DNA from: a virus | Lineage: Duplodnaviria; Caudoviricetes | Reading direction: 5' to 3' (one strand) | IMG/VR virus record: IMGVR_UViG_3300025608_000075 | Location: 1-27,820 of that record | Length of the DNA stretch: 27,820 nt | Shown: piece by piece, positions 441 to 16,533 of the stretch | How positions within the stretch are numbered: the first letter of the stretch is position 1 | Layout: each line of letters opens with the position of its first letter | Notes under the pieces: generated by a model | Database searches by the model: none | Seen by the model: the letters and a program-made list of their open reading frames with translations, nothing else | What the model was told of the DNA's origin: nothing | Translations under genes and position numbers: made by a program

Positions 441-811
441 TATTTTTTACCTCCAAATTTACTAGGTCCACCAGCTTTAGTACATCTTACACCCCAACCT
501 GAAGCATAAGCACTAGGCCAAACCTTAAATTTTCTTTTTGCAGCAGCCTTACAACCTGCGCTAATTTTAGCGTATAAAGGCGAACCCATGTTTATAGGAT
601 TCTTAGTTACATATGGTCCTTTTTTATCTACTTGTATTGTAGAGTAATCTTCAACAGATAACTGAGGAAAAGTAGTGGCATCACCTTCTTTTTTTGAAAA
701 CTGCTTTTCAAAATCATCTTCAGTAACATAATCACCTTTTTTATAAATCTTGCTAGGCTTGTTAATTCTAATAGTATCTCTATGTACTTTTTTATTTTTT
801 GGATCCGGCAT
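440..811 (-). CDS. Small basic phage protein with WPSAYASG motif (123 aa)
   Basis: The C-terminal CKAAAKRKFKVWPSAYASGWGVRC resembles a motif I recall from cyanophage and giant-virus hypothetical proteins (DUF5872-like, unverified). It overlaps the giant ORF by 20 nt. Confidence 0.75.
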   Translation of the reverse strand: MPDPKNKKVHRDTIRINKPSKIYKKGDYVTEDDFEKQFSKKEGDATTFPQLSVEDYSTIQVDKKGPYVTKNPINMGSPLYAKISAGCKAAAKRKFKVWPSAYASGWGVRCTKAGGPSKFGGKK

Positions 812-3800
812 CTTTCTTTTTATTTTGTAATTTTATAATTTCTTTTACTCTATCTTCTTCTTTAGTTAAAGCTCTAATTTGTTTTTTAGTTAAACCTAAA
901 TTTAAAAGCTTTTTAACTTGATCTGATTTATTAAGATCAAATAGTTTTTTAGTTTGCTTTTCAGTTTCAGTCAACACTGGTTTGTCTTCAGCTAAACCAA
1001 AATAAGGTAGTCCAACATCCCAACCTGACCAACCTAAAGCTAGCGCAACTTTTTGCCAGTTTTCTGTAGAAGGATTTAATATATTACGCATGTTATTCAT
1101 CTTCATAACCGCTCTATCTAAAGGTATGTTTAGTATTGATGAAACAACTTGCGCACCTGCTAAATAAGCCGGATTGTCCATGCTAAAACCTTTTTCTTTT
1201 ATTTCTTTACGATTCCAAGAAACAGTTCTTGCAGCTGATTTTAATTTTCTAATCTTAGATCCAAGTGCTGGGGCTGTAGAAAGTAAGTCATCAAGAGCTT
1301 CTTCAAACTTAGGTGACTTCTTATCTGCTTGCTCAGCTATAGTCATTAAAGCATTTTTAATACCTGAAACTACAGCGCCTTGTATACCAAGACCTTTAAG
1401 CTGAGAATCAATAGCACCATTTAAAGTTCTTTGTAGTTTTTGCTCTTTATTTTTTTCTGTTAGCTTTTCATCTTCTTCATCATCATCGAATAACGCCCAG
1501 GCTAAACCGCTTTGCATAGCATTAAACATTAAGTTTTGTATAGCGCCGTAGTAAACTATTTTAGATACATTGCTTTTCCAATCACCTCTCTTGTTTACTA
1601 GATCTTGCACAGCTCTTTTTTGTATACGTACATACTGTAATTGAGTGTTACCAAACTGAAGTATAATACGACCAATTAAAGATCTTTGCTGTTGGCTAAT
1701 TTTAGATGGACTACTAGACTGCTGGTTTTCTTCAGCTATAGCTCTAAAGTCATTAAAAGCTTGTTCTTCAGCTGCTTTTCTATCCATGCCTTGTTCAACC
1801 AAAGCTTCAGTTCTATTTCTATAAAATGTAGCACCACCAGAAGCTATAGCAAAACTATCTGCATATCTTGTAAATACAAAACCTTTATTAAGTAAAAATG
1901 ATATAGCAGAGTTAACTTTGTTTTTACTACCTTGTACAGCATCAGCTATTTCAGATTCACTTACGTTTATTTTAAGACCATCACGTCTTTCAAGTAAGTA
2001 ATCAGAGTTCATAAGAGTTAAAAAGTCACCCCAAAATTGTTTTTGATTAGCAAACGCTTTACCCGCCTTTAATATATTATTATCACCCCAATTTACAAAA
2101 TTTACCGCAGATATGGTCTGTAGCACTGCAGATCTTGTGTTTAAGAACATTATAGCACCAACAGAGTTGTTTAGCCAGTCTAGTATACCGTCTGATACTC
2201 TATCGCCGCCTAATGGTCTATTGCTGCCACTTTTCATTGCTCTTAAAGAGTCTTTTAATGCCTCGACATACTTAGCGCCAAAAGCAGCTTCTAGCTTATT
2301 TATGTTCTTTTCAGAAAATATAATATCTACATTTTCTTGCCACTCTTGCAAATACTCTTTTCTATTAACTTTATTAATACCACCTATAACGTCTGTGGTT
2401 ATAGTGCCAGCTGTCCAGTCTTTACTAGGTTCCGGATATGGCTTGTCTTTTTGTATTGTTATTAAGTTATCAGCAAATACACTAAGCTCTGCATCGTTAG
2501 TTATAAAATCAGTTAATCTTTTTTGATCACGCTTAGAAAGTCCTGGAACTTCAATGCCTTGTTTATTCCATATGTAGGTTCTAATAGCATGCTGGTATGT
2601 ATACTTAGCAATACCAGTTTCTTTTTCTAAAGTTTTCGGTATGTTTTTAAATTGCTTTTTTAACGCTTTGTAATCTCTACCAGCTGACACTTTAGCCTGT
2701 GATAAAGCTATTTCAGCTCTATTATAAGGATCTAGTAGATTTGTTTTGTAAAATGCCATTTGAGCATCACCAACTTTACCTTTACCTAATGTTTTGTAAA
2801 GTAAGCCTAAAAAGTCTTCAGCAGATGGTGTTGTAAAGAAAGTAAATTTACCTTTACTTGATCCGACTGTTTTAGCTTTAGCAGCAGAAAACTGTTTATA
2901 AGATTCAATACCTACTTTTTGTTCTATAATATCATTGAACACTTTGTCAAACACTATACGTTTGCTAGCTTTAGCTTGCTGTACCTTTGATTTAACATCA
3001 ACTTGACTTAATACGTTTTTAACAGCTTTAACATTTTTAATAGCATCATCAGCAAAATAAAAATCGTTATAACCCTCAGCGGCTTTACCCATAATCCAAC
3101 CTGCTTTTGCTTCAGCAGTGCCATCGCCTAACCCTGTTATGTTCGCTAAAGGTATGTCAATACCATTTGCTTTCATAAACTCTTGTATCGGACCAGCAGC
3201 GTTAGCAGGTCTTGCCGTTAATATAAATACATCATCAGTACCTCTTGCTGCAGCTATTTTTTCAGCAACACTAAATAATGGTCCTTTTTTACCTTCAATA
3301 ACTTTACTAAACTCTCTAAAGTCAAACTCTGCACCTTGACTTTCTAAAACATCATAATTTTCAGCAAAACTAGTTGCATCAACTTTACCAACTTTGTTAG
3401 CATTTACACCAGCGTAAACTTGCTGTAGAAAATCATTAGGCAAAGGCTTGCCGTACTCTATAGTCTCTGTGTTTATCTCGTATAAGCGATCACCAAAGTC
3501 TTCTCTATATTTAGCTAAACTTTCTTGAACTTGATCATAGGTTTTCTTTACAACAAAATCAGGTAACGATCTTTCTGTTCTAGCTTTGTTTCTAGCTATA
3601 GCAGTTTCAAGAGGCGTTGTAGCCACAACCATATGTACTTCAAAACCTTTATCTTGTAAAGCTTTTATTTTCTTAGTAGTAGCATTGTAAGAAGCGCCTG
3701 TGCCATCTATAACCATGCCATTACCTGCAGCGGCGTATTTATCGAATTTAGCTACAGCAGCTTTTCTAGCAGCAGCACCAAGCTTTGATCTAGTAGATCT

Positions 3801-6800
3801 TTGCTCTGCTGTATAATCAGATTCTTTAGCTGGTAATCCAGCTTCTTCTTTCATAGCTTCTAATGCTATATCTTGATTAACTACTTTATAACCACGTCTG
3901 CCGAGTTGTAATCCTTTACCAACATTTGTTTTACCAGCACCAGGACCACCAACCATGAATATAGCTTTTAGCTTTGTAGCGCCTTCACTAAAACCGCCTT
4001 CAACATTTGGTACAGTATATAATACTTTACTTTTAGATCTGGCTAATGTATCATCAAAGTCAAATACTCTAATCTTTTTAATAGGAGCATCTGGTCTTCT
4101 AGCGTTATTTAAAGCTTTGTCTGACTTAGCTAAAGCGTTAACGCCTGTTTGTACCGAAATAGTTTTGCTGTATTTTATTTCACTAGGCATTAGCTCATTA
4201 ATGCGTTTAGAGGCTTTTGCTTTATCGTTAGAAAGCTTGCTTTCATCTTTAGCGTATTCTTTTACTTGCTCTAATGTTTTTTCGCCTGAAAAATAATCTC
4301 TTATTAACTCAGCTTGAGTATTTTGCTGTAAACCTTTAACGCCAAAAAAGTACTCGCTAATAGTTTGACCTGTAGGTATATAAAGTAAATTATCTAAGTT
4401 TATTCCAGCTTCCGTAAAACGTATAGTAGATAATAAACCTCTATCAACTTTTATTTTACCTTCTTTAAGAAGCTCAACTGCTTTCCAAAATAAATCTGGC
4501 ATAGATGATTTAAAATCTACATCTAATAAATCATTATTATTTAAAGTAATCCAGCCTTGCATATAAGAAGCCTCTATAACAGGCCAAACCTCATTGATTC
4601 TACCTTCTTTTGCCGCGTTTGTTAAAGTAGTCCCTATATTATTTTGTGGTTCAGAGTGTTCTTCAATACCTTTTTCATTTCTAATAACTTTACCATTAGA
4701 ATCTACTTCAATTATTAAAGCGGGTGCTAAAGCTCTTAATGGAGCATTTTGAGAATTTGTAGCAGCAGACGCTATACCGTCAAAAACCCAAGTGTCTTTA
4801 GGATTGTTTTTTAAATATGCTTCTGCAGCTAAATAAAAATCTTTCAGTAAATCTAATTTAGCATTTTCTTTAGCAACGTAGCCAGGTTTTGATATAGCTT
4901 CTGCGTAAGAATTAGTGACCATTCTGTCTTTAGTCATAGGTGTTCTTCGTATATCAGCTTGTTCTCCAGTCTTATCTAAACGCTCATTGAATCTACTTAC
5001 TATACCGTATGGTGATCTTGATTCTCCGAAAACTAAAGAAAATTTAAGATAGTTATTAAACTTAGGGTTTTTCTTTAAAAATTTATTTAATACTCTATCA
5101 AATCCTTGTATAACAGTTTCACCGTCTACAGCTTTTACACTATCACTTAAAAGTTTGTTTCTATCGTAGTCTCGTTTTTTACTATCTGGCCTACGCTTTG
5201 TCCCTTCCTGCTTTTCGTCAACTCTAGTTTTACCAGCCGCATCCTGCATAAACTTAGAGGTCTGTTTTGGCGTTTTAATTTTTTTACTAAACTTAGCGCC
5301 ACCAACAGCTCTTTCGGCTGATGTAGTCACTAAATCTTCAAACATGCGGTTTCTAATATGCAAGTTTAATAAACCACGTATTGTTTGACCTACGGCGTCT
5401 CTATATATCGGCTTAACAGGTTTTTGTCTAATAAGACCTATATAGTCTTTTAAATTACCTGTAAGTTTGCCATTTGTATATAAAGCATTCATTACGTTTC
5501 TAGGTAAAAAAGTACCTTTACCAAAACCATCTTTAGTCTTTGGTAATCTAGCAAAATCGTTATTAGCGTTTTTAAGTAAAAACTGTTTAGCTGTTGTTAA
5601 TCCTTCAGCGTCTGTTTTCTGATAGTTTCTAGTTTTATCAGTTATAGTTTGAGGATTTAAACCAAACATACCAGCGTATATATCTGCTACAGCTTTTGGC
5701 ACGTTTCTAGTTTGACCAAAAGTTTTAATATCTTGGCCTTTAAAAGAGTCTTTAGTAGCTTTGGTTATTTTAGTTTCAACTTCAGCTTTATCTTTAGCGC
5801 CAATTTTTTCTATTTGAACTTGTGAAAACTCAACCGTTTCTGTAGGTTTTTTAGCTATTGGCTTTTCTTTAGTTTCTACCTCAGTGGTTTCTTCAGCCAT
5901 AACGCCTTTAGCCTCTGTTACATCACTAGTAAACTCTTCACCTAAAACTCTTTGAGAAGCTTCGATTGCTCTAGCTGGTAAAAACTTATTTATATAAGCG
6001 GCTAATGGCACGCCTGATTCAGGATTATACTCTCTAATTAAATCGAATATACCACGCTTACCTGTTTCAATTTCATCAGTTAGTAACTGACGATCAAAAT
6101 TAGGTGCGTCTCTTCTTTTATCTACTATTCTATTTACTATAGGCTTGAATTGATCTATAATATCAAAAGCGCCAGCTTCACCTTGAGTGTCGTATATCTC
6201 TTGCACTTTAGTAGATGCTATAGCTCCAGTATCTTTTTTGCTTTCTTTAGCTACGATATCTGTAACCTCAGCTTCTATATCTGTTGTAGGTTTTATATCT
6301 ACTTCAGCTCCTTTTTTGGCTACTTTTTCAAGACCTTTAGAAAGACCTTTACCTTTTTGCACGCTTCTGTTGTAATCTCTAACAAAGTTTAATACATCTC
6401 TTCCAGTTTTAAACTTAACGTTTAGACCCATAGCGCTTAAAGCTCTACGTATAAAATCACCTATTTTAGTTGTAGCTTTTTCGTTAAAAACAATGTCACC
6501 ACTTTCTAGTCCTTCACTAGCAAGAGTTAATACCTCTTCCATAGTATCTGCTTTAGATATATCAGCATCTTCAACGTACTGGTTAAATCTATCTAAAAAC
6601 TTAGAACTATTAAACGTTATGTCTTTACTATTTTTTAATTCTTCTAAAAGAGATGCACCTAAAGCTATTGCAGCTTCAGGTTTGTTTTTAACAGTTTCAA
6701 ACAAAACAGCATGACCAACCTCGTGTTGAGCAGTTGTCATTACATTATCTTGAGCTGCAGATTCTTTGTTTAAAATTATAATTCTTTTACCATCAGGCAT

Positions 6801-8540
6801 TACTACAAATGTACCGTAGTCTTCAGAGCTTTTAGTATCAATGTTTCCACCTTGCTCTTTTAAAGTTTCTATAGCAGAAGCTACATCAGCTTCATTTTCA
6901 AAAGTTTCAAATCCAGTTTCAATTTGCTCAGCTATAACTTTAGCTCCTTTTTCTACTTTAGCCGTTTTATCAGCTACAATTATATCGTTTAGTTCTTTGT
7001 CTATCTCGCTAAGTCTTTCTGACTCTGCTTTTGTTAGACTGGAATTATCTACTTGCTTTATTTTGTTCTTTAATTTTTTTTGCTCAATAACTAGGTCAAC
7101 TACTGGTTTTGTGTTTTCAACGCTAATACCTAATGGTTTTACAGTATTTAAAGCTCCTTGTATATCTCTAAAGTTACTTCTAACATTGTCGGCTTGCTCT
7201 ATAGTAAATACACCATCTCCAACTTTTTGTTTTAGCTCAGCCTCAAGTTTATTTTGAGTAAATTTATTTTCACTAAGCTTGGGTAATCCCTCGGTTACAT
7301 CAGGAGTTTCATAAGCGTCAACGACGTTATCGTATTCAGTGCCTTCTAAGTCTCTTTGTACGCTATTATCTTGTATAGTGTTTTTAATTAATCTAGATCC
7401 AGCTGCGCTAGCTCCGACTGAGCTCATTCCACCACCCATCATACCGCCAACTAAAAAAGTGTCTACTAAATCTCTAAGGTGATTATCAAATGTATCTTTT
7501 TTGCCAAGTTGAGCAGCGTCGACCATTTTGTTTATAACTTCAGTAGCAGTTTCAGACAAACCTTCAGCGCCATAGTCTTTACTTATACCTAAAGCAATTT
7601 TAGTAATTGACTCAGTTGCTTCTTTTTTACCTTTACCTGCAAGGTTTTTAAACATTCCTCCGCCAATTTTTTTAGTTACAACTTCTAAAAGACCTTCCGC
7701 AGCGCCTCTTACGGTAGAATAACCAAGTGTTTTTAAACTTAAATCTTCACCTTCTTTTTGAGCTTCGGATGAAGCACCAGCGGTTTCGCCAGCTACTATT
7801 GAGGCTATACCAACGTATGGTATCATAGACTGAACAACAGAAGGTAACGAACCTAAAGCGTCAGAGGCTGTTCTAACAGTAGCTTCTACAAAGTTACCTT
7901 TAGCGTATTCCTCTCCTATACTAGTTTCAAACTGTGTTAAATCTTGTCTTATTTTATCAGCTTTTACAACAGAGTCTTCATAAGTCTCTAAACCAATATT
8001 AGCTAAAGCAGTCATACCGGGTTGAGATCCAATATTAGCTAAAGTTTGCTTAACAAGAGGATCTAAAGCGTCGTATCTAGCTTTTTCTTCGTCACTCATA
8101 AACTCTCTATCAACAGCCATTTTAAACTCATTTAATAGAGTTGGTACTCTTGCTAACTTTCCTAAAGCATCCACAGTAGCTGCTTTTATTTTAGTACCTG
8201 TTTCTGCCCAAAAATCCCAATCACTTCCTTCTTTAGCTGCTCTTTGATAGCTTTCCCATAAAATATTCTCAGCTTCTCTATCTAATTCTTTTATTTTATC
8301 TTCTGGTGATACCGAAAAAGTATCTTCCAAAGCGAATACCGTAGGCTTTGGTGCCTGTTGTGGTCCTACCGACGGAGCACTTGCACCCACTACACCGTCT
8401 CCTGTCTTTACTGATTCGACAGAGGTTTCAACAACTTCTTTTTTGTTATTTTTTTTCCACTCTATTACTTTAGCTTTAATCTCATCTGCAGATAAACCTT
8501 GATCTTGTAATGAAGCTACGTAAGTTTCTAATTCATTCAT
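792..8540 (-). CDS. Giant polyvalent, probably virion-packaged/ejected protein (2582 aa): zincin peptidase motif, sigma-70 region-2-like segment, HAD phosphatase with inserted P-loop kinase, helical C-terminal region
   Basis: Uninterrupted 7.7-kb ORF. Motifs: HEVGH at 6725-6711; sigma-like GIFDLIREYNPESGVPLAAYINKFL at about 6055-5980; DFDDT from 4061; Walker A GGPGAGKT at 3950-3927; ILTARP near 3218; FADD near 3050. It follows the tail and ejection-like genes, as podovirus internal virion proteins do. Confidence 0.85.
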   Translation of the reverse strand: MNELETYVASLQDQGLSADEIKAKVIEWKKNNKKEVVETSVESVKTGDGVVGASAPSVGPQQAPKPTVFALEDTFSVSPEDKIKELDREAENILWESYQRAAKEGSDWDFWAETGTKIKAATVDALGKLARVPTLLNEFKMAVDREFMSDEEKARYDALDPLVKQTLANIGSQPGMTALANIGLETYEDSVVKADKIRQDLTQFETSIGEEYAKGNFVEATVRTASDALGSLPSVVQSMIPYVGIASIVAGETAGASSEAQKEGEDLSLKTLGYSTVRGAAEGLLEVVTKKIGGGMFKNLAGKGKKEATESITKIALGISKDYGAEGLSETATEVINKMVDAAQLGKKDTFDNHLRDLVDTFLVGGMMGGGMSSVGASAAGSRLIKNTIQDNSVQRDLEGTEYDNVVDAYETPDVTEGLPKLSENKFTQNKLEAELKQKVGDGVFTIEQADNVRSNFRDIQGALNTVKPLGISVENTKPVVDLVIEQKKLKNKIKQVDNSSLTKAESERLSEIDKELNDIIVADKTAKVEKGAKVIAEQIETGFETFENEADVASAIETLKEQGGNIDTKSSEDYGTFVVMPDGKRIIILNKESAAQDNVMTTAQHEVGHAVLFETVKNKPEAAIALGASLLEELKNSKDITFNSSKFLDRFNQYVEDADISKADTMEEVLTLASEGLESGDIVFNEKATTKIGDFIRRALSAMGLNVKFKTGRDVLNFVRDYNRSVQKGKGLSKGLEKVAKKGAEVDIKPTTDIEAEVTDIVAKESKKDTGAIASTKVQEIYDTQGEAGAFDIIDQFKPIVNRIVDKRRDAPNFDRQLLTDEIETGKRGIFDLIREYNPESGVPLAAYINKFLPARAIEASQRVLGEEFTSDVTEAKGVMAEETTEVETKEKPIAKKPTETVEFSQVQIEKIGAKDKAEVETKITKATKDSFKGQDIKTFGQTRNVPKAVADIYAGMFGLNPQTITDKTRNYQKTDAEGLTTAKQFLLKNANNDFARLPKTKDGFGKGTFLPRNVMNALYTNGKLTGNLKDYIGLIRQKPVKPIYRDAVGQTIRGLLNLHIRNRMFEDLVTTSAERAVGGAKFSKKIKTPKQTSKFMQDAAGKTRVDEKQEGTKRRPDSKKRDYDRNKLLSDSVKAVDGETVIQGFDRVLNKFLKKNPKFNNYLKFSLVFGESRSPYGIVSRFNERLDKTGEQADIRRTPMTKDRMVTNSYAEAISKPGYVAKENAKLDLLKDFYLAAEAYLKNNPKDTWVFDGIASAATNSQNAPLRALAPALIIEVDSNGKVIRNEKGIEEHSEPQNNIGTTLTNAAKEGRINEVWPVIEASYMQGWITLNNNDLLDVDFKSSMPDLFWKAVELLKEGKIKVDRGLLSTIRFTEAGINLDNLLYIPTGQTISEYFFGVKGLQQNTQAELIRDYFSGEKTLEQVKEYAKDESKLSNDKAKASKRINELMPSEIKYSKTISVQTGVNALAKSDKALNNARRPDAPIKKIRVFDFDDTLARSKSKVLYTVPNVEGGFSEGATKLKAIFMVGGPGAGKTNVGKGLQLGRRGYKVVNQDIALEAMKEEAGLPAKESDYTAEQRSTRSKLGAAARKAAVAKFDKYAAAGNGMVIDGTGASYNATTKKIKALQDKGFEVHMVVATTPLETAIARNKARTERSLPDFVVKKTYDQVQESLAKYREDFGDRLYEINTETIEYGKPLPNDFLQQVYAGVNANKVGKVDATSFAENYDVLESQGAEFDFREFSKVIEGKKGPLFSVAEKIAAARGTDDVFILTARPANAAGPIQEFMKANGIDIPLANITGLGDGTAEAKAGWIMGKAAEGYNDFYFADDAIKNVKAVKNVLSQVDVKSKVQQAKASKRIVFDKVFNDIIEQKVGIESYKQFSAAKAKTVGSSKGKFTFFTTPSAEDFLGLLYKTLGKGKVGDAQMAFYKTNLLDPYNRAEIALSQAKVSAGRDYKALKKQFKNIPKTLEKETGIAKYTYQHAIRTYIWNKQGIEVPGLSKRDQKRLTDFITNDAELSVFADNLITIQKDKPYPEPSKDWTAGTITTDVIGGINKVNRKEYLQEWQENVDIIFSEKNINKLEAAFGAKYVEALKDSLRAMKSGSNRPLGGDRVSDGILDWLNNSVGAIMFLNTRSAVLQTISAVNFVNWGDNNILKAGKAFANQKQFWGDFLTLMNSDYLLERRDGLKINVSESEIADAVQGSKNKVNSAISFLLNKGFVFTRYADSFAIASGGATFYRNRTEALVEQGMDRKAAEEQAFNDFRAIAEENQQSSSPSKISQQQRSLIGRIILQFGNTQLQYVRIQKRAVQDLVNKRGDWKSNVSKIVYYGAIQNLMFNAMQSGLAWALFDDDEEDEKLTEKNKEQKLQRTLNGAIDSQLKGLGIQGAVVSGIKNALMTIAEQADKKSPKFEEALDDLLSTAPALGSKIRKLKSAARTVSWNRKEIKEKGFSMDNPAYLAGAQVVSSILNIPLDRAVMKMNNMRNILNPSTENWQKVALALGWSGWDVGLPYFGLAEDKPVLTETEKQTKKLFDLNKSDQVKKLLNLGLTKKQIRALTKEEDRVKEIIKLQNKKKDAGSKK

Positions 8541-8545
8541 TTAAT

Positions 8546-9595
8546 TTAATTTAAATTATTTTCCTGTAAAAATTTTTGTGCTTTTGCTTTTTTAGCTTCT
8601 TGTAAATCAAAAATATTAGCGTCTTCAGGGTTTGTAGGTAATTGATTTTCTACAAATTGCTTAAGATAGTTATTCATAAAGTAGTCTTTGTATTTTTTAT
8701 CAAACTCTTTTTGTTTGTCAGGATATAATGGCAAGTCTTCAGTGTAAGACCAGTATTTACCTTCAGATAAGTAAACATTCCAAGCAGCTATAGCCTGTTG
8801 TTCTAAGTTTAGTAAACCAGCAACTTCAGCAGATATAAATGGACTAGCTTTTCTTTCAATTTTATCCATGTCATACTTTAGTATGTTTCTACCTTTACCA
8901 TTACCGATGTCTATAATTTCATAATCAAAACTACCATCTGGGTTTTTAAGCACAAACTCTTCAGATATTTGAGCGCTTGGAGATAACTGTCCATTTTCCA
9001 TAACACTTTCAGAAGCAAACAAACCAATCTTAGTAAGCAGAGACATCATTTCTGATGGTATATCTGGTGTTTCTGCAACTATAGTTGTACCAACATTACT
9101 TAACGCCTGTAGTGATACGCTATTGATTATTAACGGGTACTCAAACATTGGACCGTAAAATGATATCTGTTGCGAACCATCTTGTAGCAGATCTAAATAA
9201 ACATCATAGCCATCAGACTTAGAAAAACCAGGTTTTTCGTTAAGTATACAATTAGCTACGGTATATTCAAAATTATTATTAGGATCAAAACTTTGATTTT
9301 CAGTTATCTGAAGTTGAGATAAAAGTAAAGATAAAAAGTCTAGAGAAGCTTGTGGGGCTTGCTCTAGCATTTTTAATTGATTAATCTCGTATACGCAGCT
9401 GTCTGACTCACAAGTGTTGTTTTCTATAGCTATTTTTAATTTAGCATAAGTTCTAGCTGTGTTAGCAAAAGCTTTGCCTAAAAGATCAAAATTAACATCA
9501 TGACCTTTTGATATAAAATCTTTACTAAAACCAAGCGCATCACTTTGGTTTATTTGCTTTATAGTAAGGTTGTTAATTATATTTTTGTTTTCCAT
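8546..9595 (-). CDS. Acidic hypothetical protein (349 aa), possibly internal virion/ejection protein
   Basis: Clean ORF tightly packed between the pilot-like gene and the giant gene. No recognisable motif; the role is inferred from position only. Confidence 0.6.
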   Translation of the reverse strand: MENKNIINNLTIKQINQSDALGFSKDFISKGHDVNFDLLGKAFANTARTYAKLKIAIENNTCESDSCVYEINQLKMLEQAPQASLDFLSLLLSQLQITENQSFDPNNNFEYTVANCILNEKPGFSKSDGYDVYLDLLQDGSQQISFYGPMFEYPLIINSVSLQALSNVGTTIVAETPDIPSEMMSLLTKIGLFASESVMENGQLSPSAQISEEFVLKNPDGSFDYEIIDIGNGKGRNILKYDMDKIERKASPFISAEVAGLLNLEQQAIAAWNVYLSEGKYWSYTEDLPLYPDKQKEFDKKYKDYFMNNYLKQFVENQLPTNPEDANIFDLQEAKKAKAQKFLQENNLN

Positions 9596-9608: not shown

Positions 9609-10331
9609 TTAATCACCTCCACCGAAAAGAGCTCCAGCCATGCTACCAATACCACCAATTGCACCCATAGTTGCAGATGTTGCATCTGCTTGTGCTTTAG
9701 CTTGATCTTGTCTAGCAGCTTCTAATTGACCTCTAACATAGTTTATTTGATCTTGCTCTCTATTTTCTGTCATTTGCATCTCAATAGTCTTACCTTGGGC
9801 TTGAGCCATTTGAGCTCTACCACCTTCAGATATTTGTATGTTTTGCAGTCTTGCTTGTTGAGCAACTTGAGCTTGCTCCATTTGCTGCTCTCCTTGCGCT
9901 CTCATTTTTTCATTTTGAGCTTCTTGAGATTCAATACTAGCAGAAACACCTTGTTTGCTTTTTAAAGCTGCATTAGCTAAAGCGGTTGCACCACCAGCAC
10001 CTGCGCCAGTAGCTCTTAACGTGTCTAATGTGTTAGCTAAAGATATATCAGCTTGTTCTATTTGCATTTCAGCCGCTTGAGTAGCAACACTTAGGTTTGC
10101 AAATGGATTAGATATTTGATCAGACAAATCAGTTGCTAAGCCTGCTAAACTAGTTACACCGGCATAAGGATTAACAATCTCTTGTCTGTTTTTTTCTAAA
10201 CTTCTAAGTTGGCCTTGAAGCCTGCGTCTTTCTGCTTCAGCGGCTCTAGCGGCAGCTTTAGCTTTTGATCCGCCAAACAAGCTACCAATTATTTTGGTAC
10301 CTGCGCCTATTACTGCTCCTGTTATTGGCAT
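9609..10331 (-). CDS. Putative DNA ejection/pilot protein (240 aa)
   Basis: Gly/Ala-rich hydrophobic termini (GAVIGAGTKIIGSLFGG; MGAIGGIGSMAGALFGG) flank a Gln/Ala-rich coiled coil. This is typical of podovirus ejection proteins of the P22 gp7 / T7 gp14 type. Confidence 0.7.
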   Translation of the reverse strand: MPITGAVIGAGTKIIGSLFGGSKAKAAARAAEAERRRLQGQLRSLEKNRQEIVNPYAGVTSLAGLATDLSDQISNPFANLSVATQAAEMQIEQADISLANTLDTLRATGAGAGGATALANAALKSKQGVSASIESQEAQNEKMRAQGEQQMEQAQVAQQARLQNIQISEGGRAQMAQAQGKTIEMQMTENREQDQINYVRGQLEAARQDQAKAQADATSATMGAIGGIGSMAGALFGGGD

Positions 10332-10349
10332 AATTTTATATTTTTAATT

Positions 10350-11807
10350 TTAATATCCATTTGAAAATGTATAATTTGATCCTACCATAAATAATTCTTT
10401 ATATCTACCTGGTTCTGTGACTGTATCTGTAGACATTTTAACTACAGCATAATAACCTTTTATACCAGATATTTGATTTCCAAAAACTATTTCACCTTCA
10501 GAAACCGGCGTATTATTAACTACATTTGCACAATATTTATTTTCTTTTCTATCAAAACCTACTCTAAATATAGGTTGAACCGTTGCTGAAGTACCTGTGT
10601 TTGGAGGTACAGCAGAATCATAAGCGCCTTCAGTATAACTCAGTACGTTATTTGTTTTGTCAAAAACATAAGGATTTATAATGTTTGAAGAGCTTGGCCC
10701 TGTTTCATCTGAAACAAAAGAGTCAACTTGCCAACCATTAGTACCTTCGTAAGATATTGTGTTAAACACTTTAGAGTTTCCAGGTCTTGGATTAAAAACA
10801 AATGTTACTTCAGAAGCATTGCTTGTGTTGTAAAATTGGTTATAAGGAACGTTTGTAGAGTTGTGCAAATATAAACCATCTCCGAACGTTGTATAATGAT
10901 TATTCTTTAAGCTAAAAGATTGACTTGGTTTGTAAGAGTACCTACTTATCCAGCCTCTAGCAGATTCATCGTAAGATAAAGTGTTGTAAGAAATATTTGG
11001 ACTAGAAGGTTGTATAGAAACAATGTAATCTTTATTGTATATATCAAAGCCTCCTAGTATTTTTCCTTTACCAAAATTAACAGAATCAACACTTACTATT
11101 TTATTTCTAAAGAAAGATCTCATACCAGTAGCTGATATTTCTGTCAAACCATCAGCGCCTAATCTCATGACACTGTTTTGATATGAGTCTACAAAATATT
11201 TATTATAACCATATACAGCAAAACTTTCAGGGTGATTACCAATACCGTAATTTCCACCATATGGTACTATTTGACCAATTACAGTCGTAAAAGAACTAAC
11301 AGGCAAGCCTCCACCTTCAGCTGAATATATAGCGTCTTTATCTATCAATGCTCTACTAACTTTAGATTCTTGAAATATAATTAAGTTAGTATCTTCAGCA
11401 TAAAGCTTTTGTATAGAACCATTTGCTGGGTCTAAGCTTTTTGTTATATTCTCGCTAACGCTGAATACATTAGTTTGATTTATACCTGTTCTAGAGTTGT
11501 ATATACCTGAGTATATCATAGAGTTTAACCTAAAATTAGCATTAGGTTCTTCTTCTACTAAATAAGCTCTAACGCCATAATCCGTAGAAGTATTATTGTA
11601 ACCGCCTCTAATTCTAGCTTCTTCAACAAACCAACTAGTATCCCGATCTACAGGGTTGCTAACATCGTCATAAGCAGGAAAACCACCTATTGATTCAGGT
11701 ATACCAAAAGAGCCATTCCATACTGGTTTTGTAGTAGTAGAAGCTGCTGTTGCAGATTTTTTTAAAACAAAACTGTTAAAGTATTTTACTTCAATTATAG
11801 CTGCCAT
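10350..11807 (-). CDS. Tail tubular/stabilization-type structural protein (485 aa)
   Basis: Beta-rich, propeller-like sequence (SIQKLYAEDTNLIIFQESKV; YGIGNHPESFAVYG; GWISRYSYKP) in the tail module. It resembles the P22 gp10 / T7 gp12-like proteins of crAss-like phages. Confidence 0.65.
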   Translation of the reverse strand: MAAIIEVKYFNSFVLKKSATAASTTTKPVWNGSFGIPESIGGFPAYDDVSNPVDRDTSWFVEEARIRGGYNNTSTDYGVRAYLVEEEPNANFRLNSMIYSGIYNSRTGINQTNVFSVSENITKSLDPANGSIQKLYAEDTNLIIFQESKVSRALIDKDAIYSAEGGGLPVSSFTTVIGQIVPYGGNYGIGNHPESFAVYGYNKYFVDSYQNSVMRLGADGLTEISATGMRSFFRNKIVSVDSVNFGKGKILGGFDIYNKDYIVSIQPSSPNISYNTLSYDESARGWISRYSYKPSQSFSLKNNHYTTFGDGLYLHNSTNVPYNQFYNTSNASEVTFVFNPRPGNSKVFNTISYEGTNGWQVDSFVSDETGPSSSNIINPYVFDKTNNVLSYTEGAYDSAVPPNTGTSATVQPIFRVGFDRKENKYCANVVNNTPVSEGEIVFGNQISGIKGYYAVVKMSTDTVTEPGRYKELFMVGSNYTFSNGY

Positions 11808-11841
11808 ATATATTATTACTTTTTTTTATTAAATTTTACTA

Positions 11842-14800
11842 TTAACTAGGATCACAAAATCTAATTTGAACTTTCGCTGTAGCTGTTTGCAGCGGAAGAA
11901 CGTCTGCATTTATTTGTAGTGTTATTTTATAGTTGCTAAAATATCCTTGATTAAATATATAATCATTTAAATCATAAGTATTAGTTTGTGGTATATTTCC
12001 AAAACCAGTAAAATTTTCTACATTAAAAATTTGAGAATTTGTTTGACCAGTGTTAGGGTCTGTAGCGTTTATTCTACATTTAATAGTAACTAAGCCTGTA
12101 TAAGTACCTGCAATTCTATCTAATATAACTTGCATTTTAGCGTCGTTAGATGGAGAAGCAAAACTACCTTCCCATTCAACTATATAATCATCTTCTTGAT
12201 ATACTTGTGATGGCTCTGGTGATGAAAATATTTGTTGTCCATAATTAATTGGATTCGAATTAAAAGGCGTCGCGCTTGGCGGGTAGGTTGGACAAAAATC
12301 TATTATAGAAATTTGATTGTCCCATTCTATTTCTGGACTATCTCTAAAAACAAAAGTAGCATAGCAATACGCGCTTTGACCAGCTCCATCATAAGCTCTA
12401 ATTTGAACCTGATAAGGAACCATTGTTACAACATTATTTTCAGCTATTAAAAGTCTATCAACTGATGTTCCAGTTGTGTTTTGCTCAGGCGTGCTTAACG
12501 TAAAATAAGAATTTATTTGGTTTTCAGGTATTTCAACCCAACCTTCGCTACCACCTGTAGAGTAAGAAGGAAGATTAAATACACTTACTATTTCAATATC
12601 TAAATCAACTTTTTGTAAATCAATAGTTGAAGATCCATTAGCTCCGCTTATAGTGGCTATCTCTCTAGTATCTCCAATAACTCCAGTAGTTGATAAATAG
12701 CTAGTATCAATTGACTCGCCAACAAAAGACGTTTCACCGCTTGTAACGGCTGGGCCACATAAATCTGTTGTTGTTTTATTTACAAAAACACCTAAAGGCG
12801 CTGGTGATAATGCTGGTGGTATATTTTCTAAATCTCTATTTAAAGGTATAATAACATCCGCTCCTGCGTTTGTGTTTCCAAAAACAAGATTAAATATAAA
12901 ATCATTTTTAGGGCTACCTGGAGGTCCTAAGTATACTAGACCTGGAGCGTCATTACCTGCAGGTTTTTTAAGTTTTATTCTAAAACTACCTAGTGTTATA
13001 GTAGGATCTATACTATTGTCTACTATTTCAAATATATCCGTAAAAGGAACTCCATCAGGGTTTGAATCTATAACAATACCGTTTTCATCTATAGTTATTA
13101 TACTATTATCTTGAGCAAAAACACATGTATTATCAGCAATAGGCAGTATAGGTGTTCCATCTAGTTTAACTGGTCTAAACTCCTCAGTAATGTAAGATCC
13201 AGCTGCTAAACCTTCTGTCATAAGGTTAGCACCGCCTTTTATGCTGTAAAACTGATTAGGAGCTCCACCTTCGTCTATAGCCTTGTTTAAATCTTCTATC
13301 GTACCGCTTGTTGAAGTTTCGTAGTATATATCTAAGGCAGACACTACTGGTTCTATTTCATAAACATTTAAAGCTGGCAAACCTTGGTATTGAGCCTCAT
13401 ATGTTCCTGACGCATCTATCTGAACACCAAATTTTTTCTGCGTAGTTATTCTAGCTACTAAAGAACTCGAGTCTGGAAAAGAACTTGAAGTTCCACTAAC
13501 ATAATCAAAGTTGTAAAATAAATAACCTGGACTAGTACCTGTAACAAGTGTTTTAAATTGCTCGTAATTAAACAAATCTTTTATAGTTGCTACATTAGAA
13601 GCTATATCAGCTGTTTTTGAAGGATAAAATATTTCATTTGTTGTATTGAAAGCAGTAACTCCACTTAATTCATAAACCCCGTCTGAACTAGATGTAACTC
13701 TACCAAACAATCTAACACTACTTCTAAAATCTCTTTGAGCTGGACCAACTTCTGTTAAATCTCTAGGTATTTTATTTATATTATCATTTGTTAATATAAT
13801 ATGAGATGTAACCTCTAATTCTTTCTCTCTATCTTCTAGCACTGGATAACAAGCCATTGAAGACGGAATATAAGCATTATAATATTCTTGCTGCGTTTGT
13901 TTTACTACAACTTTAAAAGAATACCAACCTAACGGGTTATAACTAGATGACGATGCATCTCCATTGTATAAACCAGGCGTTCCTAGTAAATCGTTTTTAG
14001 TACTTTGTATAAAATCATTAAACTGTATTTTTAATGAGTTTCCATCAAAGTTTCCTGTACCACCTATTGGAGCATTTTCATTAGGACCTCTATAAGGTGA
14101 ATATATACTAGACGCTAAAAAAGGGTTAAAACTATATAAACTTTGTTTAGAAAACAATATAGTTGATTGTCTACCGAATCTATCAGCTAAAACAACACCT
14201 ACTTCAAAGTCTCTATTTTGTTTTAAAGTAGAGTTTGGATATTCTACTATACTAGTTTTAGAGTCTACGTTGTTATCAGATATAAAAAAAGTATCATTTT
14301 TAGGAGATGCACCTAAAGTAAAATCTAAAAAACTAGGTGGAGTATGCTTGTCTTGGTAATTACCATATATAACTCTATTGCTAGAAACTTCTTGGCTTAA
14401 TGCTTTTACTGGAACTTTATCAAAAACTCTTGTTGTTTCTTTTTCTGGTAAAGTTTTAAATGGCGCTTTAGAACCATACTCATACTCATAATTGAATTGA
14501 TCACCTGTTATATTGTTCGCTACGGGTATTGTTTCTACAACTTTAATAGCGGTCTTATCAGATTCTCTATATACTATTTCTAATTCTGTTATTTTGTATT
14601 CTGAAGTTAAGTCATTAGCTTTACAAGGCAATGGTATATTTAAATATATCTTATTAGCCTTATTTTCCATAAAAGAAACTTCTGTACTTTTATATGTGTT
14701 CTGCTCGTCACTTATGTCGTTATCATCGCCTCCAGATTTTTCACCAACAAGTCTGTCTAAAAAATAACCATCTTGCTTTGGTATAAAACAAGGTTGTGTA

Positions 14801-16533
14801 AAAGGAGCAATTAAAGAATATTCACCGTCGTCTAGTTTATACCTATACGAAAACCTAACAAATTTATCAGATAAAAAGTCAATACTTGAGTTGCTTGCAA
14901 AATCTGCATCATAGTATGGATTAGCTATAGCGAAGCGAACTTTGTCTGTAGCGCTTAAAGTAGGAGTAGTAGTAGTACATGTTATATCAAAAGAGTTTGC
15001 GTTTTCAACAACTGAAGAAACTACGCCACCTGTTGGATTAAAGGTTCCTGCTGGATCTTCTATATATATAGTATGACCTATTATATCAGTGGTTCCATTA
15101 TATCCAACTTTAGCAACCGTAAAGCTAGTTGGTGTGGGTGCAGGTAAACCTACAACTTTAGAATCTGCAAAACTAGGTAAAAATTCACTAGCAGCATCTT
15201 GCATAGACGACTCAGCTTGAACAAACTCTATAGCTGTGCCAGCGGTTAATGTTTGAGGCTGGTTAACAGTTATGCTTGTAGGCCAGTTTATTTCTGTAAC
15301 AAAAGTTCCAGGTAAAACACCAGTACCAATAATACCTAGTGTCTGTGTTAAAGTCCCAGATGTGGTTGCTAATGTTATTATTTGGCTATTATTAATAGCA
15401 TCTGTTGTAGCTGAAACAGGTGTAGTAGTTAAATCTGCTTCGGCTTGACTTGGTCTATATAATTGTATTGACTGGTAAGGATAGTACTTAGCTACAGAAA
15501 TTTGATCTTCTGTAGTGTAGTAACCAGGATTTCTATTTACGTTTACTTTTCTAGGTTGATTTCTATTATCTGTAAAAAATAAAAGTTGTTCTATTATGTT
15601 AACACCAGTTATAGACGCTTGAGTAGAGAAATTAAGCCAAGAACCTTCGGCTATTATTTTAAAGCTACTAGATATGTTAGGATTTAAAGAAACAATAGCA
15701 CTATATGAAGGTAGTAAAGAGTCTATTGTAAACTCACAAGATGTTGTGCCTCCGTCTACTGATAAAACATCTCCAATTTCATAACCTCCGCCAAAGTTTG
15801 TTATTCTAAGAAAAGTTATTTGACCTCCACTTACAACAGCGGAAACAGTCATTTCTTTTCCATTACCGCTACCAGATACATAGCTAGTAGTTCCAACTAT
15901 TGGAGCTGTATAACCAGCGCCTTGATTAGTTATAGTTATAGGTCCTTGTACAGATGATACTCGTATGCTAGCGTTATTATCACCGCCATTGATCTGAAGT
16001 TGATCACCTACTACATAGCCAGTTCCTGGGTTAGTTATGACAACATTTGTTATAACGCCAGCCACAGCAGTTGTAGTTAATCTCATTCCAGTACCAACAC
16101 CACCTAAAGAAGTTGTTGTTACATTTGTATCAGAAGTATAACCTGTTCCACCTCCTATAATAGTAGCGCCAATATTATCGCTATCTTGATCGCTTGGATA
16201 AGAGCTAGCTTTTCCTACAGCTCCAGTAGGCACATACGGCTGCAATGTATTGTTTGTTATAAAAGCAAAAATAGTATTAGTATTGTCATCTGGTAATGCG
16301 CCTATAACGTTTAAACCTTTTAAATTGCCAGGTATAATAGAAGAAAAATCAGCAATTTTTTCATTACCTAAAACATTTTGAATTGTTCCAACGTTTCCTT
16401 CAGCTGAACCATCTCCTTGAGATTTATTTATAGAAACATTAACAGCGTCCCTGTATTCACCATTAGGCACTAATCTATCATCAAGATCTTTATTCATCTT
16501 GGATTTTAGAAAACTATTTTTAACTTCTGCCAT
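11842..16533 (-). CDS. Large tail structural (nozzle/stabilization-like) protein with inserted repeat domains (1563 aa)
   Basis: N-terminal MNKDLDDRLVPNGEYRDAVNV, LLFFTDNRNQPRKVN and NRVIYGNY are motifs I associate with crAss-like tail stabilization proteins. It also has Thr/Gly-rich inserted beta domains. Confidence 0.7.
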   Translation of the reverse strand: MAEVKNSFLKSKMNKDLDDRLVPNGEYRDAVNVSINKSQGDGSAEGNVGTIQNVLGNEKIADFSSIIPGNLKGLNVIGALPDDNTNTIFAFITNNTLQPYVPTGAVGKASSYPSDQDSDNIGATIIGGGTGYTSDTNVTTTSLGGVGTGMRLTTTAVAGVITNVVITNPGTGYVVGDQLQINGGDNNASIRVSSVQGPITITNQGAGYTAPIVGTTSYVSGSGNGKEMTVSAVVSGGQITFLRITNFGGGYEIGDVLSVDGGTTSCEFTIDSLLPSYSAIVSLNPNISSSFKIIAEGSWLNFSTQASITGVNIIEQLLFFTDNRNQPRKVNVNRNPGYYTTEDQISVAKYYPYQSIQLYRPSQAEADLTTTPVSATTDAINNSQIITLATTSGTLTQTLGIIGTGVLPGTFVTEINWPTSITVNQPQTLTAGTAIEFVQAESSMQDAASEFLPSFADSKVVGLPAPTPTSFTVAKVGYNGTTDIIGHTIYIEDPAGTFNPTGGVVSSVVENANSFDITCTTTTPTLSATDKVRFAIANPYYDADFASNSSIDFLSDKFVRFSYRYKLDDGEYSLIAPFTQPCFIPKQDGYFLDRLVGEKSGGDDNDISDEQNTYKSTEVSFMENKANKIYLNIPLPCKANDLTSEYKITELEIVYRESDKTAIKVVETIPVANNITGDQFNYEYEYGSKAPFKTLPEKETTRVFDKVPVKALSQEVSSNRVIYGNYQDKHTPPSFLDFTLGASPKNDTFFISDNNVDSKTSIVEYPNSTLKQNRDFEVGVVLADRFGRQSTILFSKQSLYSFNPFLASSIYSPYRGPNENAPIGGTGNFDGNSLKIQFNDFIQSTKNDLLGTPGLYNGDASSSSYNPLGWYSFKVVVKQTQQEYYNAYIPSSMACYPVLEDREKELEVTSHIILTNDNINKIPRDLTEVGPAQRDFRSSVRLFGRVTSSSDGVYELSGVTAFNTTNEIFYPSKTADIASNVATIKDLFNYEQFKTLVTGTSPGYLFYNFDYVSGTSSSFPDSSSLVARITTQKKFGVQIDASGTYEAQYQGLPALNVYEIEPVVSALDIYYETSTSGTIEDLNKAIDEGGAPNQFYSIKGGANLMTEGLAAGSYITEEFRPVKLDGTPILPIADNTCVFAQDNSIITIDENGIVIDSNPDGVPFTDIFEIVDNSIDPTITLGSFRIKLKKPAGNDAPGLVYLGPPGSPKNDFIFNLVFGNTNAGADVIIPLNRDLENIPPALSPAPLGVFVNKTTTDLCGPAVTSGETSFVGESIDTSYLSTTGVIGDTREIATISGANGSSTIDLQKVDLDIEIVSVFNLPSYSTGGSEGWVEIPENQINSYFTLSTPEQNTTGTSVDRLLIAENNVVTMVPYQVQIRAYDGAGQSAYCYATFVFRDSPEIEWDNQISIIDFCPTYPPSATPFNSNPINYGQQIFSSPEPSQVYQEDDYIVEWEGSFASPSNDAKMQVILDRIAGTYTGLVTIKCRINATDPNTGQTNSQIFNVENFTGFGNIPQTNTYDLNDYIFNQGYFSNYKITLQINADVLPLQTATAKVQIRFCDPS

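Follow-up and report, generated by a model that had tools for sequence, protein, structure and literature searches.

The window analysed here, the whole stretch of 27,820 nucleotides (nt) covering positions 1 to 27,820 of IMG/VR virus record IMGVR_UViG_3300025608_000075, is a minus-strand structural operon of a marine Bacteroidota podovirus, and all window features given below lie on that strand. It carries a giant gene (792–8540) whose open reading frame (ORF) encodes a virion- or ejection-type protein of 2582 amino acids (aa) in the 0 frame. Close to the start of this gene lies a candidate programmed −1 ribosomal frameshift cassette, consisting of a slip site, a short spacer, a pseudoknot, and an open −1 frame that encodes a conserved tail.

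The cassette follows codons 1–44 (8409–8540), which encode a small N-terminal domain and linker common to the giant protein and the predicted transframe product. The slip site, A_GTA_AAG (8406–8412), is an A_AAG tetramer after a Val GTA codon, with GTA AAG forming codons 44 and 45 of the giant gene (8411–8406). The spacer ACAGGA (6 nt; 8400–8405) leads into an H-type pseudoknot, in which the 5' arm of stem 1, GACGG (8395–8399, the same in L003 and L027), pairs with the 3' arm CCGTC (8371–8375), and stem 2 is formed by GGTGC (8383–8387) and GCACC (8350–8354). The −1 frame ORF (8296–8409) encodes a basic, Cys-bearing peptide of 37 codons followed by TAA (8298–8296); the frame has no ATG and is closed upstream by a TGA (8430–8428), opening only six codons ahead of the slip site. 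The predicted transframe product would comprise 44 + 37 = 81 aa. A preliminary description of this DNA had given the site, spacer, stems, pseudoknot geometry, open −1 frame, and product length at these positions, and all of them were reproduced here, as was its observation of a GC-rich patch in an AT-rich gene (50–60% GC in 40-nt windows of the cassette versus approximately 30–40% around it).

Of the two loop pairings that had been offered for stem 2, GGTGC with GCACC corresponds to the stem 2 of the family (consensus GGRTGC and GCAYCC), with the 3' arm aligning to the family stem 2 columns; no variant of this arm is listed in related contigs, and the loop preceding it varies. The other pairing, TGTAGTGG with CCACAACA, is not conserved and was rejected, being disrupted in L003 and L027, the two nearest relatives with the cassette, and by variants at 8356–8360 in contigs from other samples. 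A third register of stem 2, GTGGGT (8390–8385) with GCCTAC (8346–8341), scored equally in the window (−21.4 versus −21.3). The cassette site has the best pseudoknot stacking score among the 58 in-frame A_AAG sites of the window, and among its 966 in-frame Z_ZZN sites it is the only one that combines a score of −20 or lower with a −1 frame open for at least 30 codons; by structure score alone, five other Z_ZZN sites in the window beat it. The nested minimum free energy of the window stretch gave no signal relative to shuffled sequences (z = −0.2 to +0.6) with a program that cannot model pseudoknots. Rfam at the gathering threshold matched neither the window stretch nor five strong homologous loci, and no upstream Shine-Dalgarno-like stimulator was evident in the window sequence.

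Relatives were fetched using two genes upstream of the giant gene, encoding proteins of 240 and 349 aa, as baits and without using the cassette motif. This yielded 258 loci; nine motif-selected loci were left out, 180 had a third gene of at least 150 codons in view, and 152 remained after removal of near-duplicates. A tblastn search of the 240-aa gene against cultured phages found nothing. Peptides in the −1 frame were scored with a profile trained on one half of the loci and applied to the other half, with a threshold of 10 bits. The −1 frame profile reached this threshold in 112 of the 152 5' ends and the full profile added five, giving 117 loci with the cassette; the window's own −1 frame ORF scored 46.8 bits against the profile from the other half. 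At 10 bits, the tail profile matched none of the 152 5' ends in either the 0 or the +1 frame, nor did it match any of 1239 interior windows, whichever frame was read, and lowering the threshold to 8 bits produced one interior match, in the 0 frame. Furthermore, the −1 frame was open for at least 30 codons in 123 of the 152 5' ends versus 169 of 1166 interior windows. The N-terminal domains ahead of the cassette fall into many unrelated groups (37 BLAST clusters of 152), and the cassette persists across these types; N-termini related to the domain encoded by codons 1–44 of the window occur in 52 of the 152 loci. From the 117 cassettes, 110 entered the tail alignment, 50 of those were chosen by us for the covariation analysis, and 84 were used for the selection test.

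A pseudoknot search made inside the open −1 stretch and blind to slip sites revealed that the best pseudoknot begins 4–9 nt after an in-phase Z_ZZN (A_AAN or U_UUN) in 99 of the 117 cassettes, versus 30 and 15 for the other two phases and a background of 22%, with a spacer of 5–7 nt in 89 of the 99. The window's site, A_GTA_AAG, is the commonest form in the family (21 of 99), followed by G_GGA_AAG (18), G_GAT_TTT (14), G_GTA_AAG (9), A_GCA_AAG (7), and rarer forms. The worry, already voiced in the preliminary description, that the site is a tetramer and not a full slippery heptamer is answered in part by this distribution: the commonest sites, NNA_AAG, follow four-codon-box codons, and they alternate in relatives with full heptamers (G_GGA_AAG and G_GAT_TTT) at an equal distance from stem 1. 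U-type sites are present in 19 loci with five changes on the tree, and the site stays slippery through the switches between A-type and U-type. Stacking scores of −20 or lower were obtained for 106 of the 117 cassettes versus 18 of 1332 interior sites. When the 50 chosen loci were aligned by sequence only and the structure was taken from a single row, 86.7% of cells paired, with two-sided changes in 15 of 17 pairs and in both stems; none of 500 shuffles matched this, and slid registers reached at most 54%. Seven loci (L088, L100, L102, L107, L147, L153, and L177) carry a compact form where the YGI codons of the tail double as the 3' arm of stem 2, and one stretch therefore serves the RNA and two reading frames.

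Beyond the pseudoknot, the −1 frame of the window encodes the tail YGIRFGRYFFGI (8308–8343), which is conserved by codon analysis and predicted by AlphaFold2 to form an amphipathic β-hairpin. The family consensus in this region is Y-G-h-x-h-G-[RK]-[WY]-F-h-G-[IF], and the overall pattern of the tail is CC/GCxC...YGhxhG[RK][WY]FhG. All four Gly codons encode the glycines of this motif in the −1 frame, and most of the conserved columns vary less in the −1 than in the 0 frame. Across 35 non-overlapping close pairs, the ratio of nonsynonymous to synonymous substitution rates (dN/dS) downstream of the pseudoknot was 0.47 in the −1 frame versus 1.16 in the 0 frame, and 0.63 (p 0.02) versus 0.98 when four anchor codons were removed. 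Judged by these codon comparisons, purifying selection is acting on the −1 frame past the pseudoknot and not on the 0 frame. Homologues, to which the preliminary description had looked as the place where its proposal could fail, thus keep the slip site, a covarying pseudoknot, and a YG..xG..FFG peptide in the −1 frame.

These results bear on the idea that no frameshift takes place, the pseudoknot having another RNA role (pausing for folding, or mRNA processing) and the −1 peptide being a shadow of a 0-frame linker motif or a product of internal non-AUG initiation. A DT/DG-S-S/L pattern does recur in the 0 frame, and a pause after a small N-terminal domain is plausible. However, the 0 frame is without purifying selection (dN/dS approximately 1), its Ser/Leu alternation follows from the third positions of the −1 frame, the slip site is phase-specific with fixed spacing, and the late opening of the −1 frame leaves six codons without an ATG ahead of the site; we consider this explanation highly improbable.

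The tails have a median net charge of +6 and mostly three to five cysteines, with none in 5 of 110. The preliminary description had proposed a Cys motif together with a basic, aromatic tail, of which the aromatic hairpin proved the stronger signal at the protein level; the Cys pattern overlaps with the stems and does not occur in those five tails, and the cysteines may partly be a by-product because they are encoded by the stems. In AlphaFold2 models, strands were predicted at residues 27–33 and 36–42 of the 43-aa frame, with a predicted local distance difference test score of approximately 82 for residues 31–40 and the Cys part left unresolved. At E ≤ 0.02, none of 72 scanned tails had a match in Pfam or PHROG, ESM Atlas returned sub-threshold leads (0.75–0.76) or none for the tail, and a tail query against cultured phages gave three matches, at chance level. 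Nine loci (L009, L014, L016, L017, L019, L026, L044, L056, and L183) keep the site and pseudoknot with few or no cysteines and another hairpin, of the FRFWKWKI type or YRVRxGKWIF. Two singleton called proteins, P0001 and P0002 (70 and 74 aa), carry the N-terminal domain and the tail in one frame, and may stem from natural deletions or from errors of assembly; P0002 lacks a few codons relative to L274–L276, its relatives with an intact cassette, and its model had no Foldseek match among viral structures at E ≤ 0.001. Among 1796 candidates, no longer fusion with the tail in frame was found, which is weak evidence.

If frameshifting takes place, it could serve only to throttle the giant protein, the tail being a disposal signal or a by-product without a role of its own. 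The position of the site near the 5' end, where abortion is cheap, accords with this, as do the many unrelated N-terminal domains ahead of the cassette and the coincidence of the cysteines with the stems together with their absence from some tails. For throttling, a stop codon would be enough, but the −1 frame runs on for a median of 38 codons in the family, and the 12-residue motif past the pseudoknot is under −1 frame selection and is predicted to form a hairpin. A pure throttle therefore seems improbable to us.

The family thus combines a slippery tetramer or heptamer in the 0 frame, a 3' structure approximately 5–9 nt downstream, and selection on the shifted frame. From these sequence comparisons, the giant gene very probably undergoes a programmed −1 ribosomal frameshift, with the −1 frame product under selection. 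At codon 45 (Lys45), a fraction of ribosomes would slip into the −1 frame and terminate once 81 residues had been made, so that the gene would yield, besides the 2582-aa protein, a transframe protein of 81 aa with a predicted basic, aromatic β-hairpin at its end. By analogy with bacterial frameshifting, the pseudoknot would stall the ribosome while tRNA-Lys re-pairs from AAG to AAA, and the loose third-base pairing of the Val tRNA on GUA would help the slip; as a side effect, the diverted ribosomes would lower the output of the giant protein. According to the available excerpts of PMC5009743, a −1 shift requires at least a Z_ZZN site, A_AAG slips readily when both codons are read by a single tRNA-Lys, and slippage is aided by a 5' codon prone to wobble, a description that suits the GTA, GCA, and GGA codons preceding AAG. 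A host without tRNA-Lys(CUU) would favour slippage on A_AAG; a tRNA-Lys pattern search found the UUU form in 0 and the CUU form in 1 of 101 genomes, with a pattern that failed its positive control.

Several points weigh against a selected programmed frameshift. Because the pseudoknot search was confined to the open −1 stretch, it was biased towards structures close to the site; the score comparison set the best of several sites in each cassette against one site per control, and the structure scores are stacking sums, not pseudoknot free energies. With a score of −21.4 against a family median of −25.8, the pseudoknot of the window belongs to the weaker examples, and another register competes for its stem 2. 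The +1 frame, too, is open more often at 5' ends (84 of 152) than in interior windows (426 of 1166), the selection signal without the anchor codons is modest, and the proposed function lacks structural or family support from Pfam, PHROG, ESM Atlas, and Foldseek. A single RNA run, X8, produced no contig over this region, an outcome that does not prove absence. In addition, 35 of the 152 relatives have no cassette and are scattered on a FastTree tree of the 240-aa protein (16 changes, seven forced by well-supported branches), so the cassette would be dispensable or replaced in many lineages; no stand-alone copy of the tail was found within the fetched flanks of the loci that lack it.

All nine GenBank relatives with a traceable giant gene carry an A9–A11 run at the corresponding junction (codons 33–66) in place of the cassette. 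Three Baltivirus genomes and phi46:3, near-identical at the junction, were counted as one case, and an equivalent giant gene was not located in Gundel. For reference, A or T runs of at least 8 are present in 78 of 1166 interior windows. The run is A11 in a spring virus and A10 in elemo, phi38:1, and Calle (loci L259:33384, L261:29954, L279:27423, and L286), where the giant gene is in frame and a basic, aromatic −1 frame follows the run (YCIKLGRYSICI in L259). It is A9 in phi13:2, phi18:3, phi19:3, phi46:3, and Panino, where the giant ORF is shifted to the −1 frame relative to the ATG, with a WFFG-type peptide in the frame beyond it. In these five phages, the annotation treats a small and a giant ORF as two genes, although a −1 frame change at A9 joins them (L280:28119-28400, L281:5310-5640, L282, and L283 for phi13:2, phi18:3, phi19:3, and phi46:3; L260:31586-31900 for Panino); the run reads A_AAA_AAG in the Cellulophaga phages. 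The two ORFs are probably one recoded gene, or reflect a shared homopolymer error. Against the profile, the tails of the A-run relatives scored weakly, with 13 bits in Panino, 7 in the spring virus, and below 5 in the others, and their position and motif suggest homology to the cassette tails. In Panino, the tail frame also contains two tandem copies of a WF(I/F)G-type motif (L260:31730-31850).

Runs of A9–A11 are of a length at which bacterial polymerases slip (PMC5009743, excerpts), and it is plausible that RNA polymerase slippage, and not the ribosome, changes the frame in the A-run relatives. For the window phage the same explanation is barely credible: there are just three As at its site, and a pseudoknot placed 6 nt 3' of the slip site is a hallmark of the ribosomal mechanism.

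Known phage frameshifts lie mostly in tail chaperone and capsid genes, and to our knowledge few natural bacterial frameshift pseudoknots have been described. The frameshift in Escherichia coli copA uses an A_AAG-type site and a pseudoknot and ends translation almost at once. Like the proposed window event, it is an early −1 shift in a long gene, giving a short N-terminal product, of 70 aa, beside the full-length one (PMC5009743 and PMC6771820, excerpts); the window's −1 frame differs in adding approximately 37 residues under their own selection and in belonging to a phage virion gene, not a transporter. In lambda, a conserved −1 shift in the morphogenesis operon fixes the ratio of gpG and gpGT (PMC5009743, excerpts), and the window would likewise have a −1 shift in a phage morphogenesis operon and two products with a shared N-terminus. 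However, the lambda shift lies near the 3' end of a short gene in long-tailed phages and gives the longer product, whereas the window shift lies at codon 45 of a 2582-codon podovirus gene and gives the short one. The window gene sits in a podovirus-type operon and not between major tail and tape measure genes, and Pfam and PHROG scans gave no match to a tail assembly chaperone family. Frameshifts in T7/T3 gene 10, Lactobacillus A2, and Listeria A118 similarly produce a second virion protein from one structural gene (PMC5009743, excerpts), but these extend a nearly complete protein, often with an immunoglobulin-like domain, whereas the window shift would truncate the giant and add a small Cys/aromatic tail. 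The IS3 family shares a Lys-type tetramer or heptamer with a 3' RNA structure in bacteria (PMC5009743, excerpts), and differs in fusing orfA to a long transposase orfB; the window has neither a mobile element nor a long −1 ORF. Searches of the open-access literature brought up no paper describing such a cassette, and none is mentioned in the available parts of PMC10136315, PMC5009743, PMC6771820, PMC5512222, PMC10885494, and bioRxiv 10.1101/2025.10.02.679949.

The window operon comprises a GroES-like gene, the large terminase, the portal, capsid-type and other virion proteins, a gene with the crassvirus muzzle C-terminal domain (10350–11807; PF25729, E 4e-13), the conserved 240-aa gene (9609–10331) that was the main motif-independent bait, the 349-aa gene (8546–9595) that was the second bait, and the 2582-aa giant; the 240-aa and 349-aa genes are cargo-type by position only. 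The muzzle-type protein is seemingly split in the window (10350–16533) into 1563-aa and 485-aa genes, each matching parts of phrog_14478, and seems to be one gene in cultured relatives. In GenBank, the capsid-type protein and terminase most closely match an uncultured spring virus, Maribacter phage Panino, Flavobacterium elemo phages, and Cellulophaga phages (Pachyviridae and Pervagoviridae), and the best holders of sequence matches to the window are marine metagenomes. On the basis of the capsid-type and terminase matches, the window phage is assigned to the Bacteroidota podoviruses outside Crassvirales proper: its best matches are Elemovirus, Panino, Pachyviridae, and Pervagoviridae, and Pfam and PHROG scans gave no match to an RNA polymerase family within the window, where a crassvirus would have a giant virion RNA polymerase. 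The gene order of a muzzle gene followed by cargo-type genes and a giant recalls the Crassvirales cargo genes of crAss001 (gp45-47/49/50) and phi14:2 (g065-067) described in the available parts of PMC10136315, but the window giant carries a kinase domain. In crAss001 and phi14:2, there was no A-run of at least 8 at seven cargo 5' ends and no tail-profile match in those loci.

The kinase domain of the giant protein is a P-loop domain at approximately residues 1525–1690 (Pfam AAA_33/Zeta_toxin; PHROG polynucleotide kinase). It is preceded by a DFDDT motif (giant residues approximately 1495–1850 for the region, approximately 4060–2990), which resembles HAD phosphatase motif I, and the two could possibly form an injected kinase-phosphatase module. 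Synteny with phi18:3 gp123, which is annotated as seen by tandem mass spectrometry (MS/MS), leads us to infer that the giant protein is located in the virion as cargo.

We tentatively propose that their common N-terminal domain directs both products to the capsid; the small protein would be made in a fixed ratio to the giant and would be co-packaged with it or act in loading or ejection, and the hairpin would bind a membrane or a partner. Held slightly more loosely is the broader possibility that a large aquatic lineage of Bacteroidota podoviruses uses recoding just after the N-terminal domain of its giant ejection protein to produce a new small protein, of the virion or of assembly, whose β-hairpin binds a membrane or a partner. 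The mechanisms would have been swapped within the lineage, with pseudoknot slippage in the uncultured clade and poly-A slippage in the cultured phages, and phi13:2, phi18:3, phi19:3, phi46:3, and Panino would make a complete giant only by recoding.

The more than 100 natural variants of one pseudoknot with interchangeable slip sites provide a ready set for frameshifting on Bacteroidota ribosomes. The split small-plus-giant annotations in the cultured Cellulophaga and Maribacter phages are suggested to be one recoded gene, and the idea is therefore testable in available phage-host pairs. For these widespread aquatic phages, the −1 frame would add an unannotated small protein under selection, and the cassette points to a missing component in the loading or delivery of giant ejection proteins.

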